Position numbers and translations under genes: made by a program. Below, piece by piece: positions 3,234-8,355 of a stretch of DNA of 10,260 bases. Origin of the DNA: a virus (Duplodnaviria > Heunggongvirae > Uroviricota > Caudoviricetes); the IMG/VR virus record IMGVR_UViG_2737471864_000005; one strand, 5' to 3'. The stretch's first letter is position 1, and each line of letters starts with the position of its first letter. A model generated the notes under the pieces. It had not been told where the DNA came from. It was given only the letters and a program-made list of their open reading frames with translations, and made no database searches.

Positions 3234-3905
3234 TTAAAATGGAATATCAAAGTCTTCATATACTTTGGGATGTTTCTTAGCAAAATATGCCTCAATACCA
3301 TTTGGTAGCTTTAACCTGTGCTTATAGGCTAACGATGTTGCAAATTCTATAAATGATGCTCCTCCTGTTCTTTTGTGTTTCTCCTGGATGATAAGAGAGG
3401 AAAAATTCTCTAACACATCCTCCTCATTATCATTAGCTACCTTTTCACTTGATGAAACAGGTGTTTCTTCCGTCTCCCAGGGTAAAGGCGTATCCCAATC
3501 ATCATCAAGAACATCAAAAGAAGGCTGTTTATTATCTTCCGTAGGGGGAAGCTGATCAGGAACAGTTTTAACAGTAGCTTCTTGTTGTGTCTGGGCTTCT
3601 TGTTCATAAGGAAGGACAATATAAGCATTTGTGCTACCTGCCCTTTCCTCAATCTTCAACCATCCAAAAGAAACAAGATCTTTGATATGACGGCGTACCG
3701 TCTGATCTGTACCTACTCCTAACCGCTCACCAATACCTTTCAAAGATGGTGTTACCTTTTGGTATGTGCCAGATAAACTTAACAAATAAGAATAAATGAT
3801 CTTATGGTGTAGTTTTACTTCTTTTGTTTTGCCGTTAATCACCAGGGAAGTGATTGCTAGTAAGTCATAATCTATTCCTAAAAAAGGTTTTGTATGTTTA
3901 ATCAT
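3234..3905 (-). CDS. Winged-HTH DNA-binding protein with acidic linker; possible replication initiator or replisome organiser
   Basis: 223-aa ORF with AAGGAG SD. N-terminal region (KIIYSYLLSLSGTYQKVTPSLKGIGERLGVGTDQTVRRHIKDLVSFGWLKIEE) resembles wHTH domains of phage O / DnaD-type initiators; central acidic tract (DDDWDTPLPWETEE). Function is an architectural inference. Confidence 0.55.
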   Translation of the reverse strand: MIKHTKPFLGIDYDLLAITSLVINGKTKEVKLHHKIIYSYLLSLSGTYQKVTPSLKGIGERLGVGTDQTVRRHIKDLVSFGWLKIEERAGSTNAYIVLPYEQEAQTQQEATVKTVPDQLPPTEDNKQPSFDVLDDDWDTPLPWETEETPVSSSEKVANDNEEDVLENFSSLIIQEKHKRTGGASFIEFATSLAYKHRLKLPNGIEAYFAKKHPKVYEDFDIPF

Positions 3906-3959: not shown

Positions 3960-4130
3960 TCACTTGCTTTTATTTGAGAGTGTTTCAGCCTCTCTTTTCA
4001 ACATATCAAGAATGTAATCTGTGACAGTGATACGTCTACTTCTGGCTTCTTTAAATAACACCTGAAATACTTCATCAGGAATATGAAAGCAAGTGCGTGG
4101 TTGTCTTTTCTTTTCTGTAGTTTCGCTCAT
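3960..4130 (-). CDS. Ribbon-helix-helix (CopG/Arc-type) DNA-binding protein (56 aa from preferred start)
   Basis: ORF track gives 3960..4175; the in-frame ATG at 4130 has a strong AAGGAG SD 6 nt upstream and avoids overlap with the upstream gene. PRTCFHIPDEVFQVLFKEARSRRITVTDYILDMLKRE fits a beta-strand plus two-helix RHH pattern. Confidence 0.55.
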   Translation of the reverse strand: MSETTEKKRQPRTCFHIPDEVFQVLFKEARSRRITVTDYILDMLKREAETLSNKSK

Positions 4131-4149
4131 AGTTTTCTCCTTCTTTTCT

Positions 4150-4338
4150 TTACTCTGTTTCAGATTCTTTTTCATTTTTTCTTAGTTCATCAATAATCTT
4201 GAGTGCTTCATTGAAGCAAGCTGCTCGCTCTGGATAACCTCGACTCCTTGCCATATTACGATTCATTACTACTTGATGGCGAGATAACTCACCTTTTTTA
4301 AATGCCGAGACGACGTGTTCCGGTGTAAACCATTTCAT
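4150..4338 (-). CDS. Hypothetical 62-aa protein, first gene of the regulatory operon
   Basis: ORF with AAGGAG SD 6 nt upstream, directly downstream of the predicted promoter and leader hairpin. Confidence 0.5.
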   Translation of the reverse strand: MKWFTPEHVVSAFKKGELSRHQVVMNRNMARSRGYPERAACFNEALKIIDELRKNEKESETE

Positions 4339-4355
4339 AAAAAACTCCTTATTCA

Positions 4356-4394
4356 GTTAAAAGAAAAAACACCTTGCAAGCCTGACGGCTTCAA
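4356..4394 (-). terminator. Leader hairpin plus U-tract, possible attenuator
   Basis: Stem AAGCC/GGCTT with TGAC loop (4378-4391), extended by TTG/CAA with a 1-nt bulge; on the minus strand followed by GGTGTTTTTTCTTTT. Lies between the predicted promoter and the first RBS. Confidence 0.4.
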
Positions 4395-4444
4395 AGTGCA
4401 TTGATTTTGATTATTTAGAGAAGAATGTTTTCTGTCCCTCTAAT

Positions 4445-4477
4445 ACCTATTATTACATATAAAGAAACATTTGTCAA
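4445..4477 (-). promoter_or_regulatory. Putative sigma70 promoter for the 4338-to-2061 operon
   Basis: Minus strand reads TTGACA (plus 4472-4477), 17-nt spacer, AATAAT; about 100 nt upstream of the first start codon. Confidence 0.4.
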
Positions 4478-5009
4478 TACCTTTTCACAAAAAATCTGAT
4501 CTTTTTCATGCACTTACATTTTTTCTTAGCTATTCGTGCTCTTCTGTGTAGTGCTATTCTTCATTATCCGCTAAAACGCTCTAAAACGCGTTCTAACGAG
4601 ATTTTGATAAAAGCAATACATTCCCTTATGTAATGGCTGTTTAGCTCGCCAGAGGCTTATTTAAGGGGCTTATTTTGTATTTGTTAGGTATATGAAAAGG
4701 TGATTGTAGATATAAGATAGAGAGTCACTTTATAAAACGCTCTGTAAAGCCCTGTAGTGAGTTTATATATGTAGACAATGCGTTTCCATTCCCTACCCTG
4801 CTTAATGCTGTTAGAGAAGCATTTAGACCCCTTATTTTTAATTAATTAAAGTATCCTCTATACACTCCTGTTATGAAACACCTCTGAATCCTTCATAAAA
4901 CACATTATGACGCAAAGAACACTTTTCTAAGGTGATTCCCTTCCTGAATGCTGTTTCTTGCGTCAGAGAGCTACAGAGAGCTTATAAAGCTATTATTAAT
5001 AATAAAGTA

Positions 5010-5062
5010 GATAAGTAAGATAAGTAAGTAAGATAACTAAGATAGATAAGATTAATAAGATC
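5010..5062. repeat. Tandem degenerate 9-mer array (GATAAGTAA-like, 5 units)
   Basis: GATAAGTAA, GATAAGTAA, (GTAA), GATAACTAA, GATAGATAA, GATTAATAA, GATC read directly from the sequence. Confidence 0.6.
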
Positions 5063-5105
5063 AGAATTCTCTTTCGGTGTCGCCTCTGGCTTTTCCACCG
5101 AAAAC

Positions 5106-5260
5106 AATTACACGACTACAGAATGTAGAAGTGGAATTGTATTGAGGCTTAGTGAAATTACACGAGGAAAGCAGAGTGTAATTGAGCTTTAGCCACTCTC
5201 TCTTCGAGTAATTACACAACTACAGAGAATAACAGAGTTATTAAGTGTAGGAGGGTAATT
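5106..5260. repeat. Cluster of AATTACAC motifs with nested short inverted repeats
   Basis: AATTACAC at about 5106, 5157 and 5210; AATTACAC-N12-GTGTAATT inverted pair (5157-5183); CTACA-N-TGTAG dyads at 5115-5127 and 5219-5250; AATAAC-AGA-GTTATT at 5228-5242. Confidence 0.55.
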
Positions 5261-5323
5261 AAGAGGTAGAGAGATAGAGTTAACACGTAAGCAATCTGTA
5301 GATTGGTTAGGTGATTACTCTTA

Positions 5324-5495
5324 CTGCGCACAGCGCAATAGTATTTCTTCGTGGGCGTTATCGCCAACGAAGTTACACGAAGAAAGTAACGCTTTGCTTT
5401 CGGTGTGAGCGGAACGGGCCAGCCAACGTAGCCCGAAAGGTAGCGGAGTAAGGCTGCTTGCCAGAGAGTGAAGCTAACGCCGGAAGGCAAAAAGA
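5324..5495. other. GC-rich island of consecutive stem-loops (candidate structured RNA or DNA site)
   Basis: TGCGC-ACA-GCGCA (5325-5337); CTTCGT-G-GGCG-TTAT-CGCC-A-ACGAAG (5347-5372); GTTAC-N9-GTAAC (5372-5390); CGGGC-N11-GCCCG (about 5414-5434). Markedly more GC-rich than its flanks. The only ORF here (5212..5499 minus) is low-complexity and likely spurious. Confidence 0.35.
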
Positions 5496-5498
5496 TCA

Positions 5499-5675
5499 TA
5501 TATATATAGATATAAAGAATATTATTTAATTATTATTTAATTATTCTTATTAACTTATTCTTATCGGGTATCAGTTTTGATAGGGGTAGGGGTATCAGAC
5601 TTGATAGGGGTAGTCATATCAAAGTTAATAGGGGTATCAATATTGATAGGGGTAACAGAATTCTGTGGGGGTAGC
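5499..5675. promoter_or_regulatory. Candidate replication origin: AT-rich unwinding tract plus five palindromic iterons
   Basis: Near-pure AT tract 5499-5562, then TGATAGGGGTA-type units starting at about 5578, 5602, 5626, 5644 and 5664 (spacing 24, 24, 18, 20 bp). Units form TGATA-GGGG-TATCA dyads, consistent with a dimeric binding protein. Confidence 0.5.
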
Positions 5676-5716
5676 TCACAGTGACCTACCGTTACTACCA
5701 ATCATCACATAGCACT

Positions 5717-6200
5717 CTGTGTAATGTCTTTCTATGTGCGTGCCATAATCCCCCTATATTCCCTGTGTAAATCATAGAATAATGCTCTCTATTCCCTGTG
5801 TAATTCCATACTAAAAAATCCAATGAAAAGTAGCTTAAAAGTGCAATTCTTACTTTCTTCACTTTTACATCACTTTCGCAAATCCTTGTGTAGTGCGGCT
5901 TACAGAGCACCATCAGAAATTGTTGGCTAAAAATTGTTCTGCTTGTTTCTTAATGAGTTTTCTTGTTTGTGCAAATTTTAAAATTTATTTTGTTTTTATA
6001 GCCTTATTTCGTGTAATGCGTGGCATAGCAAGCCCTTTTCTTGTGTTGTCAAGACATTTGGCAACGTTCAAACATCTGTTTAGAAATGCCAAATTGTTGA
6101 TCTAACAAATAAACCTGTATAAACAGAACACCATTTAATCTATCCCCCTGTGTATCCATTAGGCATACCAAATGAATACATCTAAATCGTGTAATATTCC
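5717..6200. repeat. Dispersed GTGTAAT / CTGTGTAA motifs (reverse orientation of the 5106-5260 cluster)
   Basis: CTGTGTAAT-like motifs at about 5717, 5765, 5800, 5885, 6010, 6148 and 6188, including ATTCCCTGTGTAA twice (5758-5812). Confidence 0.5.
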
Positions 6201-6285
6201 GTACCTATAAGGCTTGAAACAGACCAAATGAATACGATATACTCATTTGCATTGAAGTAGTGCCAAATCGATACATTAAGAGGAT
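6160..6285. promoter_or_regulatory. Candidate res site (three resolvase-binding subsites) upstream of the recombinase
   Basis: ACCAAATGAATAC at 6167-6180 and 6223-6235; the latter pairs with ATACTCATTTG (6239-6249) as an imperfect dyad; third related copy CCAAATCGATAC at 6263-6274. Ends just before the recombinase start. Confidence 0.4.
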
Positions 6286-6288
6286 TTT

Positions 6289-6828
6289 ATGAGCAATATC
6301 GGTTATAAGCGTGTGAGCACTGTAGATCAGAACACTGATCGCCAGCTTGCAGGAGTAACGCTTGATAAAGTCTTTGAAGATAAGCTGTCAGGTAAAGACA
6401 CTAACCGTCCAGGATTGCAGGCGTGTTTATCCTATCTGAGAGAAGGCGACACCTTACACGTCCACTCTCTTGATCGTTTAGGGCGTAACACCTTAGACAT
6501 TCTGGAGTTAATCAAACAATTGAATGATCGAGGTGTAATTGTTCGCTTTCACAAAGAAGGAATCATTGCTGACATTACAAGCGCGATGGGAAAGATGATG
6601 CTTACGATGTTGTCGGCAGTTGCAACGTGTGAACGTGAACTGATGTTAGAGCGTAAACGAGAAGCGCAAGCCGTCAATCCTACAAAGCGTGGTAAAGGGA
6701 AGGCAGTAGATAGGGAAGGTATAAAGAAAGCCCTTTCCGCTGGAGTGTCAGTGCGTAAAACCGCCGAGAGCTTTAATGTTGCTCCTTCAACGGTGCAACG
6801 TATCAAGAAGGAAGAAGAGGAGGCGTAA
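6289..6828 (+). CDS. Small serine recombinase, resolvase/invertase family
   Basis: 179 aa. N-terminal GYKRVSTVDQ with catalytic-serine context, DRLGRN, GKMMLTMLSAVATCERELMLER helix, and C-terminal HTH-like tail resembling gamma-delta/Tn3 resolvase. GAGGA SD 4 nt upstream. Confidence 0.85.
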   Translation: MSNIGYKRVSTVDQNTDRQLAGVTLDKVFEDKLSGKDTNRPGLQACLSYLREGDTLHVHSLDRLGRNTLDILELIKQLNDRGVIVRFHKEGIIADITSAMGKMMLTMLSAVATCERELMLERKREAQAVNPTKRGKGKAVDREGIKKALSAGVSVRKTAESFNVAPSTVQRIKKEEEEA

Positions 6829-6836
6829 TGCCTCCT
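6818..6836 (+). terminator. Hairpin overlapping the recombinase stop codon
   Basis: AGGAGGC-GTAAT-GCCTCCT perfect 7-bp stem (6818-6836); downstream T-tract is weak, so terminator function is uncertain. A second hairpin TCTGGA-TTT-TCCAGA lies at 6851-6865. Confidence 0.3.
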
Positions 6837-7155
6837 TGATATTTGGGGATTCTGGATTTTCCAGATCGGGGGGCGCTGATCTTCGCGTTAAACATTGATC
6901 ACGTTTGCGCCGATTTCAGATAAAAAGGCAGCTATTAAGCAATACGTAACTTTTACAATTAGTGAAATTATCTAAAACACAAGTTATATAGATGAGAAAA
7001 TGAAATATTATCTTGAACAAATCAAACAAAACAACACATCATCTTGTTGACACCATGCAAAGTGAATAGTAAGCTATTATATGTGAAAATTTGCACATTG
7101 CATGCAATAAAAAATAAATGATACCTTGTTGTTGTTAAATCAATAGGGGGTATCT

Positions 7156-7314
7156 ATGCGCTTTATCTTATCCATTTTAAAAACCTGCAGAACCACAATT
7201 ACTTTAGCTGTAATTGTTACCATCATATACCTCATCTATTTTACCCCTCGAGATAAAATCGATTCACTAGCGATCATCGTTCATGCAATGGCTACATTAA
7301 CTAAAAAACTTTAA
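7156..7314 (+). CDS. Candidate small membrane peptide (52 aa)
   Basis: Hand translation: MRFILSILKTCRTTITLAVIVTIIYLIYFTPRDKIDSLAIIVHAMATLTKKL. AGGGGG SD 5 nt upstream of ATG. One predicted transmembrane helix. Not in the ORF track, presumably because it is under the length cutoff. Confidence 0.4.
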   Translation: MRFILSILKTCRTTITLAVIVTIIYLIYFTPRDKIDSLAIIVHAMATLTKKL

Positions 7315-7327
7315 TAATTTCACTATC

Positions 7328-7371
7328 AGGCGCACAAACACATCTTTGATTGCTGGATGTGTTATGCGCCT
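7328..7371. other. Long imperfect inverted repeat between two convergent small genes
   Basis: AGGCGCACAAACACATC (7328-7344), 11-nt loop, GATGTGTTATGCGCCT (7356-7371). No clear U-tract on either strand, so it may be a binding site or RNA structure rather than a canonical terminator. Confidence 0.4.
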
Positions 7372-7380
7372 ACTGGTGAT

Positions 7381-7533
7381 TCAATCCTTAAGCCATTTCA
7401 ACTCACTAAGGAGTTTTCTTTCTTCGTTCTCTCGCTGTTTACGCTCTAGCCAGGCTTTTCCCTCTGGCGTAGACAGGAACTTACGAGCGTGAATCTTGCG
7501 GTTATTACGTTTTATAGCTGCAATGTTTTTCAT
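7381..7533 (-). CDS. Candidate small basic protein (50 aa)
   Basis: Hand translation: MKNIAAIKRNNRKIHARKFLSTPEGKAWLERKQRENEERKLLSELKWLKD. AGAGG SD about 7 nt upstream. Highly basic, likely helical. Confidence 0.4.
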   Translation of the reverse strand: MKNIAAIKRNNRKIHARKFLSTPEGKAWLERKQRENEERKLLSELKWLKD

Positions 7534-8355
7534 CGTGTTGCCTCTGTATTCATATGAAAATTAACAAGTTACATACTACACAGGGAGACTACGCATAAAA
7601 CACAATACAAGTAAAGATACATTTTCAAGACAATAGGAGCCATAAAGCGCCTTTGATGGTTATACCAAAAAATAAGCGCCGTAGGCGTATCCACTAAAAG
7701 GGCTTTTTCACAAAAGCTATGAAGTCTTAGCAGTTCTTCTCTTATCAGGCACCCGTTGTACTCCGGTGGACGAAACCGTGCTAGAGCTTGATTCTTTCCC
7801 GATCAAGTTAGGTTTTGAAGAGGTGGGCTTTAATCCACTATTGCACTTAAAACTCTTCCCATCATTTAGCCTGTTTATCCTCTGCAACGTCTCACGACGT
7901 GTGGCATCATTGGACACCGCGCCAGGTGTGGAACATCTTGCTAAGAGTTTTGGTAGAAGGTTTAGAGACGGTGGCACGTCTTCCAGCTTCAAAGGAACTT
8001 GTTACGAGGTTGAGCCTGGGAACTACTCGCCCATACGTGTTACACTACCAAAGCCCATAACAACGTATAGGCGTTTGTAAGTGATAACAGAAGATACAAT
8101 TTCTTAGAGAAGTTAAGCTAAGTTATTGATTTTCTTAATGGTGCGATAATAGGAACAATACACATAGGCGATAAGCTTTGTTTTTGTTGCCTTTTTTATT
8201 GTTCATTTTTTATAGATACCCCCAAAAGTACCCCCATATCTTTTTCCGCCCCTGAAATTTGGTTGTTATTCATACAGCATATCAGGCGGTAACGCTCTCC
8301 CTTTAACCCACTTATTGTATGATAGTGCTATCCCACAATAAGGAATCAGCCAGCC

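Follow-up and report, generated by a model that had tools for sequence, protein, structure and literature searches.

A membrane peptide cassette, a 50-residue core protein and a structured RNA at the end of a tRNA-integrated island of Escherichia coli

Are a 52-amino-acid (aa) membrane peptide and a 50-aa basic protein, encoded tail to tail and separated by an inverted repeat, the two halves of a toxin-antitoxin (TA) system? The question is raised by positions 7156-7533 of the IMG/VR record IMGVR_UViG_2737471864_000005, a stretch of 10,260 nucleotides (nt) classified as Caudoviricetes and referred to here, at its full length, as the window. A preliminary description of this DNA had proposed two small open reading frames (ORFs) with good ribosome-binding sites and had compared them with the TA or small holin-like arrangements of mobile elements. 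Both ORFs are present, and both are preceded by a Shine-Dalgarno (SD) sequence (GGGGG at 7146-7150, 5 nt upstream of the ATG at 7156, for the peptide; GAGG at 7544-7541 on the minus strand, 7 nt upstream of the ATG at 7533, for the 50-aa protein). Both frames proved to be conserved genes, and both lie on an island integrated at a tRNA gene, in line with the proposed mobile element. The two genes are convergent and do not form an operon, with 66 nt between their stop codons. The peptide gene belongs to the optional cargo of the island and the 50-aa gene to its core, and a reading of the two as a matched TA pair is not supported. What constantly accompanies the 50-aa gene is a structured RNA encoded upstream of it, not the peptide.

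In our preferred reading, which we hold with somewhat more confidence than doubt, the locus is the junction between the core and the cargo of a phage-satellite-like island, where a module made of the RNA and the 50-aa gene abuts an optional toxin-like peptide cassette that brings its own stem-loop.

The structured RNA and the 50-aa gene

Between the tRNA and the 50-aa gene, a stretch of approximately 600 nt is conserved from genus to genus and shows compensatory changes. This interval contains the structured RNA (Table 1), which is co-oriented with the 50-aa gene and with the attachment-site tRNA, and which has several GNRA-capped hairpins and long-range helices, some of them with arms about 200 nt apart. 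RNAalifold, run on 24 sequences below 93% identity, returned 71 base pairs, 39 of them with compensatory changes; the alignments were sequence-based (MAFFT), some helices are mis-registered in them and the pair count is probably an underestimate. Standard pairs filled 96.3% of the cells compared to 33-45% in a control in which the 3' partners were slid by 1-3 columns, and pairs changed on both sides numbered 39 compared to 6-11; the aligned sequences are related and the slid control retains this relatedness, yet its values stay far under those observed. The covariation score (0.353, compared to approximately 0.06 after sliding) was reached by none of 500 shuffles. The strand of the 50-aa gene was 96.3% paired with 143 G.U cells, compared to 89.3% and 26 on the opposite strand.

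Rfam 15 gave no hit at E ≤ 10 in this region of the window, and none at E ≤ 1 in five other representatives of the RNA except for the flanking tRNA. A literature search covering the island, the accession and tRNA-linked RNAs found nothing relevant, a description outside Rfam and the searchable literature being possible. With respect to these two sources, the RNA is apparently undescribed. A protein-coding origin of 7534-8154 was considered and rejected: the indels are not multiples of three, a 91-aa ORF is broken in locus L080, and the changes are compensatory. A consensus scan revealed neither promoter nor terminator between the tRNA, the RNA and the 50-aa ORF, so that the three may be co-transcribed. 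The motif TGTATCTT flanks the RNA on both sides, at about 7616-7623 and 8091-8098 (minus-strand reading), with the copy AAATTGTATCTTCTG upstream and the copy AAAATGTATCTTTACTTGTA downstream; their positions are conserved across genera, and the motif may be a protein-binding or promoter element.

A search with a 21-nt pattern from the RNA matched 40 IMG/VR and 120 metagenome stretches, and further motifs of the RNA were found in 137 of these 160. The start of the 50-aa gene lay 275-345 nt downstream of the pattern in nearly all motif-bearing matches with enough sequence. The RNA and the 50-aa gene are thereby linked in more than 100 loci of at least ten genera, the few exceptions being pseudogenes, a different basic ORF (L080) and the absence of a small gene (L089, L180). 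The ORF in L080, a metagenomic relative, lies at 11039-11356 of that locus and is an unrelated Lys/Arg-rich frame of approximately 100 aa, predicted to be helical; its position after the RNA suggests that this place favours small basic proteins.

The peptide does not share this constancy. Its family occurred in 36 of the 140 loci that have the 50-aa gene and enough downstream sequence; since about three quarters of the loci carry the 50-aa gene without the peptide, a cognate protein pair is not supported. Among 90 distinct downstream contexts, the peptide family accounted for 12, another hydrophobic ORF (49-54 aa, co-directional with the 50-aa gene) for 22 and other genes for 56. The stem-loop and the peptide were present in 226 of the complete E. 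coli genomes, compared to 491-604 for the module of the RNA and the 50-aa gene, which is found in approximately 11% of them. The carriers of the module include the O104:H4 outbreak strains HUSEC2011 and 2009EL-2050 as well as O103, O26 and O111 strains.

The E. coli islands fall into three classes. Class A (53 genomes) matches the window in full and has this peptide allele; in class B the match starts at 7270 and a second peptide allele is present; in class C it starts exactly at 7383, at the stop codon of the 50-aa gene, and neither peptide nor hairpin is found. Strains NT1N31 and LZHX12 are examples of E. coli that carry the two small genes, and HUSEC2011 has the second peptide allele. The cargo slot 3' of the 50-aa stop codon thus has its E. 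coli breakpoints at 7270 or 7383, and it holds other genes in other genera. Between islands with and without the peptide, the 50-aa protein differs only in its last 2-4 residues, at the recombination breakpoint. In E. coli islands lacking the peptide, the slot contains the hydrophobic ORF of 49-54 aa (MFNA.VSLFCALFCIFIMQKRTRK..., for example at 4758-4922, minus strand, of L006, and also in L009, L010 and L080). In E. coli, then, the slot is usually occupied by one or the other of two small hydrophobic ORFs that are unrelated.

The 50-aa protein (RefSeq WP_000788776.1, hypothetical) contains 15 Lys/Arg and 7 Asp/Glu residues, with no acidic residue among the first 20. Its near-invariant core, KRNNRKIHARKFLxTPEGKAWLERK (KRNNRKIHARKF..TPEGKAW; alignment A2), is shared by ten or more genera of Enterobacterales. 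In the 16 loci compared, the third position varied in 24 of the 26 codons of this core, compared to 9 at the first and 6 at the second, and the codon differences were 1175 synonymous and 350 non-synonymous, indicating strong purifying selection. A search of 5.8 billion proteins gave 57 relatives, nearly all of 49-52 aa, from Escherichia, Shigella, Klebsiella, Enterobacter and Raoultella, to which a genome scan added Citrobacter, Kluyvera, Kosakonia, Scandinavium, Pantoea, Erwinia, Winslowiella and Mangrovibacter. An exhaustive HMMER run over 1.84 billion representative proteins gave only 42 hits. Those that clearly belong to the family stand alone, with lengths of 28-96 aa; the four longer ones are weak and spread over multiple stretches. 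On these results, the protein is confined to the island module.

AlphaFold2 predicted a confident helical hairpin (predicted local distance difference test, pLDDT, 91) with helices at residues 4-20 and 23-49, the first rich in Arg/Lys and the second acidic. Pfam, PHROGs, NCBIfam and PADLOC gave no family for the protein, and it was assigned no fold. A role as excisionase or recombination directionality factor was considered; there was no corresponding Pfam hit and no winged-helix or HTH_17/AlpA-type fold, the model being a plain two-helix hairpin. The stretch K-R-N-x-x-x-H-x-R-x-x-x-(A/S)-T-x-x-G-x-x-x-L resembles the core of ribosomal protein bL34, and a sequence search of the PDB returned six bL34 or bL9 sequences (E 0.13-0.85). 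Identity with bL34 was rejected in view of an unsupportive hhalign profile comparison (probability 10.5%), the absence of a Pfam Ribosomal_L34 hit in all 26 members tested and the helical hairpin with its acidic second helix. We treat the resemblance as chance or compositional.

From their linkage, we infer that the structured RNA and the 50-aa protein act jointly: the RNA may be bound by the protein, or it may serve as a regulatory leader of the 50-aa gene.

The peptide cassette and its stem-loop

The peptide combines a predicted N-terminal transmembrane helix (best 19-residue Kyte-Doolittle mean 1.88) with an amphipathic C-terminal helix; AlphaFold2 placed helices at residues 2-29 and 32-51, with a break at T30-P31 (pLDDT 75). 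Three alleles of 52-56 aa were found, with approximately 35% identity and a common C-terminal motif, A(I/N)I..AMA..T..K(K/R)L, and the hydrophobic helix and the amphipathic tail are kept in all of them. The second allele, that of class B (MHLLSKHLHTIHFLVIDVFVVAISYRICIASSEEMDAVAIIAQAMAMLTKRL; RefSeq WP_000550450.1), has the same length as the window peptide and is 35% identical to it. The third, in Raoultella planticola, has 56 aa counted from the ATG preceded by an SD sequence and is also convergent with the 50-aa gene; there the stop codons are 12 nt apart and the big hairpin is absent. All three sequences are in public databases as hypothetical proteins. Differences between alleles were concentrated at codon position 3, both over the whole gene (30-36, compared to 17-23 at positions 1 and 2) and in the C-terminal part (11-14, compared to 3-6). 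Pfam, PHROGs, NCBIfam and PADLOC revealed no toxin, holin or defence family match. The holin-like interpretation was abandoned: the neighbours of the peptide gene are a serine recombinase gene and the 50-aa gene, and no lysis genes were found in the window or in its annotated relatives.

A predicted sigma-70 promoter precedes the gene (Table 1), and transcription would start near 7082-7083. The same layout was found in the second allele (TTGACG-17-TAGACT in L005) and in Raoultella (TTGACG-17-TAAACT in L011), giving the consensus TTGAC(A/G)-17-TAnnCT over the three alleles; alignment A1 shows the block to be conserved. In each of the alleles, the minimum free energy (MFE) fold of the leader (approximately 70-75 nt) hides the SD sequence, with different sequences doing so. 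In the window, the anti-SD GATACC (7120-7125) pairs with GGTATC (7149-7154), which overlaps the SD, and an outer stem also covers the AUG; the pairing arms are CTTCC/GGAAG in L005 and AATCCTCCTA/TAGGAGGATT in L011. The z-scores of the three leader folds were -1.5, -1.9 and -3.9.

With fewer than 60 aa and a transmembrane helix, the peptide has the size and hydrophobicity of a type I toxin, and the predicted leader folds of the three alleles correspond to the structurally silenced mRNA of such toxins. As far as can be read from the sequence, the promoter, the SD-hiding leader, the transmembrane helix and the C-terminal motif together are the architecture of a type I toxin gene. What stands of the TA proposal is a peptide gene that looks toxin-like and tightly gated. 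The product would be a small inner-membrane peptide, harmful once freely translated, with a possible role in exclusion, abortive infection or island maintenance.

No antisense promoter for an antitoxin RNA was conserved across the alleles. The L005-type second allele has an antisense promoter-like site within the peptide gene and a terminator-like hairpin over the -35 element. Two short palindromes, ATGTGAAAATTTGCACAT and ATTGCATGCAAT, lie at 7081-7111 of the window, at the start of the predicted leader, and the other alleles have an inverted repeat over the -35 element (AATCTACGTCAAC...GATGTAGATT). These palindromes and inverted repeats may be operator sites or elements of an antisense terminator.

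The dyad between the two genes exists as proposed, and its size had been understated: the 16-17 bp are the inner stem (GGCGCACAAACACATC / GATGTGTTATGCGCC), to which an outer stem of 6 bp (TCACTA / TGGTGA) is added. The plus-strand RNA folds with an MFE of -30.1 kcal/mol (shuffles -14.4 ± 2.8, z -5.6, none of 200 shuffles as stable) and the minus-strand RNA with -30.3 kcal/mol (z -4.6). The stem-loop was carried by 226 of 5426 complete E. coli genomes, as a rule in one copy and at most in two; a dispersed repeat of the repetitive extragenic palindrome (REP) or miniature inverted-repeat transposable element (MITE) type was rejected on this count. It accompanies the two E. coli peptide alleles and is missing from the class C islands and from the Raoultella allele. 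None of its four variants has compensatory changes. One variant, G to T, leaves the plus-strand stem intact by way of a U.G pair and weakens the minus-strand stem, which hints, weakly, that the strand that matters is the plus strand, that of the peptide mRNA.

A terminator scan called nothing at 7320-7379. The stem is followed by only UUCAAUCCUU on the plus strand, and on the minus strand by U6, but 11 nt further on. With no proper U-tract, terminator action is a matter of inference. As part of the peptide cassette, the stem-loop most likely makes up the 3' terminus of the peptide mRNA. It probably serves both convergent transcripts as a shared 3'-end structure and transcription barrier that keeps them from colliding.

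The island, its attachment site and its neighbouring genes

Megablast placed the window in the E. coli chromosome, and its annotated relatives identify the segment as the right-hand part of an island of approximately 12 kb. The island integrates at tRNA-Thr or tRNA-Leu, and the 50-aa gene is its last gene. The order is a tyrosine integrase at the far end, structural-looking genes, an O-like initiator, cargo, the 50-aa gene, approximately 600 nt without annotation and tRNA-Thr; this tRNA-Thr is thrW, which adjoins proA. The island has its own major head protein (Pfam Phage_cap_E, 1e-15; PHROG major head protein). A phage origin of the window was rejected, as it had no match among 50,697 phage records.

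The window contains no intact tRNA. Matches in many genomes stop at 8154, beside an intact tRNA-Thr, and the window holds a partial copy of the tRNA 3' end as the attachment-site repeat (Table 1). The stretch 8137-8175 is the junction of two tandem islands, and the right-hand 2 kb of the window, with genes of the pRiA4b ORF-3 family and PerC-like genes, belong to the second.

An AT-rich stretch followed by five iterons with a spacing of approximately 18-24 nt and the core GATAGGGGTATCA is probably the replication origin of the island, fitting the O-like initiator. It lies within a region of approximately 2 kb (4340-6289) that has no convincing ORF and that also contains TAAG-type tandem repeats (5005-5061). 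The serine recombinase gene neighbours the peptide gene in the two E. coli alleles and not in the Raoultella allele; it is therefore not an obligate partner of the peptide. A segment inverted by this recombinase was also considered and rejected, since a search of 4000-8300 for long-range inverted repeats gave only weak pairs (73-87% complementarity) and the recombinase is absent in Raoultella. A 58-nt block after the recombinase stop codon (6837-6894) is kept at 93% identity in islands where the recombinase gene is replaced (the block lies at 4574-4631 of L006), and may be a recombination site or a cassette boundary.

Table 1. Coordinates of the features discussed, as positions of the window
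Feature	Position	Strand	Remarks
O-like replication initiator	3234-3905		PHROG 4e-12
Probable replication origin	5520-5672		AT-rich stretch, then five iterons
Serine recombinase (resolvase/DNA-invertase type)	6289-6828	+	Pfam Resolvase 1e-33; PHROG DNA invertase 6e-55
Predicted sigma-70 promoter of the peptide gene	7047-7075	+	-35 TTGACA 7047-7052; 17-nt spacer; -10 TAAGCT 7070-7075
Peptide 5' leader, approximately 73 nt	7083-7155	+	MFE fold hides the SD
52-aa peptide gene MRFILSILKTCRTTITLAVIVTIIYLIYFTPRDKIDSLAIIVHAMATLTKKL	7156-7314	+	N-terminal transmembrane helix and C-terminal amphipathic helix (predicted); accessory cargo
22-bp imperfect stem-loop	7320-7379		Fills the spacer between the convergent stop codons
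50-aa basic protein gene MKNIAAIKRNNRKIHARKFLSTPEGKAWLERKQRENEERKLLSELKWLKD	7381-7533	-	Core island gene; predicted helical hairpin
Structured RNA, approximately 430 nt	7640-8072	-	106-nt gap to the 50-aa gene; covariation, alignments A5-A8
Partial tRNA-Thr 3' end TCCTATTATCGCACCA	8137-8153	-	Attachment-site repeat; island end; one G missing

Weighing of the readings and comparison with known systems

Several observations weigh against the preferred reading of a core/cargo junction. The consensus scan found no sigma-70-like promoter for the structured RNA or for the 50-aa gene, and the stem-loop lacks a canonical U-tract on both strands. In L080 the RNA is followed by a different basic protein, and in L089 and L180 by no small gene; the interaction between the RNA and the protein is read from linkage. 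In E. coli the peptide is seen only beside the 50-aa gene, which would allow a functional link between the two. Its presumed toxicity is deduced from the gene architecture, no known type I toxin hidden Markov model in Pfam or NCBIfam matches it at E ≤ 10, and two of the three leader z-scores (-1.5 and -1.9) are modest. A more far-reaching version, in which the 50-aa hairpin and the approximately 430-nt RNA are a new RNA-protein module at the core of a widespread family of capsid-encoding islands and the peptide is wired to it at the RNA level, is possible, and we put it forward tentatively, with more doubt than belief.

Among the rival explanations, the one that survives best, unlikely as we judge it to be, is a type I-like TA system acting at the RNA level. 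The convergent transcript of the 50-aa gene, or read-through, would pair with the peptide mRNA at the shared stem-loop or in the 3' coding region and cause its decay or block its translation. The convergent genes share a perfectly complementary 60-nt stem-loop, and the Raoultella stop codons are so close that the transcripts would overlap there. The strong promoter with the sequestered SD, the restriction of the E. coli peptide to the vicinity of the 50-aa gene, and the antisense promoter-like site and terminator-like hairpin of the second allele also fit this explanation. However, the convergent partner is a deeply conserved coding core gene which has no peptide beside it in most islands, and the antisense promoter is not conserved in the first allele or in Raoultella. 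Moreover, the 3' end of the peptide gene shows variation at synonymous positions, which points to constraint on the protein rather than on the RNA, and the known type I families are unmatched.

Next comes the proposal, improbable in our view, that there is no toxin biology at all: the peptide would be a harmless small membrane protein, for instance one that regulates a transporter or a sensor, or else a remnant in decay, and the hairpin an ordinary bidirectional terminator. Many small membrane proteins of E. coli are indeed non-toxic regulators, the peptide has no homology to toxins, and the variants within an allele include non-conservative changes and one truncation (P0058-P0061). Against this, three diverged alleles combine a strong promoter with a conserved leader that sequesters the SD, which suggests that translation must be restrained, and both the length of the ORF and its C-terminal motif are preserved from one genus to another.

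Third, and likewise improbable, the 50-aa protein could be a factor resembling lambda N, whose arginine-rich helix binds GNRA-type hairpins of the nascent upstream RNA so that polymerase reads through a regulated terminator at 7320-7379 into the leftward genes of the island. Its Arg/Lys-rich first helix, the several GNRA-capped hairpins in the leader RNA and the strong hairpin directly after the stop codon would suit such a factor, as would the position of the RNA and the small gene at the head of a long minus-strand gene array. However, a 430-nt RNA with long-range helices far exceeds what a nut or put site needs, the hairpin is absent from islands without the peptide cassette, the hairpin is separated from the core genes by cargo genes encoded on the opposite strand, and the protein has no sequence relation to N proteins.

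Finally, neutralisation of the 52-aa membrane peptide by the 50-aa basic protein, in the manner of a protein-protein TA system, has in its favour the adjacency of two genes with small products and the fact that the E. coli peptide never occurs apart from the 50-aa gene, but it is very improbable, as the 50-aa gene has no peptide in approximately 74% of the loci and is equally conserved there, with a protein that changes only in the 2-4 residues at the breakpoint, the genes are convergent and not a co-directional bicistronic operon, a soluble, highly basic helical hairpin would be an odd partner for a transmembrane helix, and Pfam, NCBIfam, PHROG and PADLOC gave no TA or defence hit.

On the reading of a core/cargo junction, the pair of small genes is a modest finding: an uncharacterised family of type-I-toxin-like peptides in a cargo hot spot, next to a tiny core protein. 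More important is that the 50-aa gene is attached to a large covarying RNA without an Rfam match, which occurs in hundreds of the complete E. coli genomes and also in ten or more further genera, beside tRNA genes and on an island that encodes a head protein of its own. Should this RNA and the 50-aa protein prove to cooperate, a new RNA-based function would be added to the satellite-like elements of the best-studied bacterium.

Type I TA systems with convergent, 3'-overlapping genes are represented by par (Fst/RNA II) of plasmid pAD1 and by TxpA/RatA and BsrG/SR4 of Bacillus subtilis. The peptide cassette shares with them a hydrophobic single-helix peptide of approximately 50 aa, whose gene has a strong promoter and a leader predicted to conceal the ribosome-binding site, location on a mobile element, and a convergent transcript with a common 3'-end stem-loop. 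In contrast to them, the convergent transcript encodes a conserved protein, the gene of which has no peptide beside it in the majority of islands; the analysis identified no small antisense RNA dedicated to the peptide, and there is no sequence homology. Hok/Sok, Ldr, TisB, ShoB, ZorO and DinQ/DqlB are similar in size (Hok has approximately 50-52 aa), in the transmembrane helix and in the leader fold-back that silences the primary transcript. Unlike them, the cassette has no mok-like overlapping frame and no conserved Sok-like promoter in the leader, and neither Pfam nor NCBIfam matches the peptide to Hok, Ldr, Ibs, TisB, ShoB, ZorO, DinQ or Fst.

For the RNA, the closest likeness is to GOLLD, ROOL and HEARO, the large ornate non-coding RNAs of prophages and mobile elements. 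Like them, it is several hundred nt long, has many covarying helices and GNRA loops, and lies near a tRNA gene on mobile DNA; it differs in matching none of their Rfam models, in belonging to Enterobacterales and in being coupled to a specific 50-aa gene. In this coupling, the locus resembles ColE1 plasmids, in which the small protein Rop (Rom) acts with RNA I and RNA II: here, too, a very small helical-hairpin protein is encoded on a mobile replicon just downstream of a co-oriented structured RNA of approximately 500 nt.

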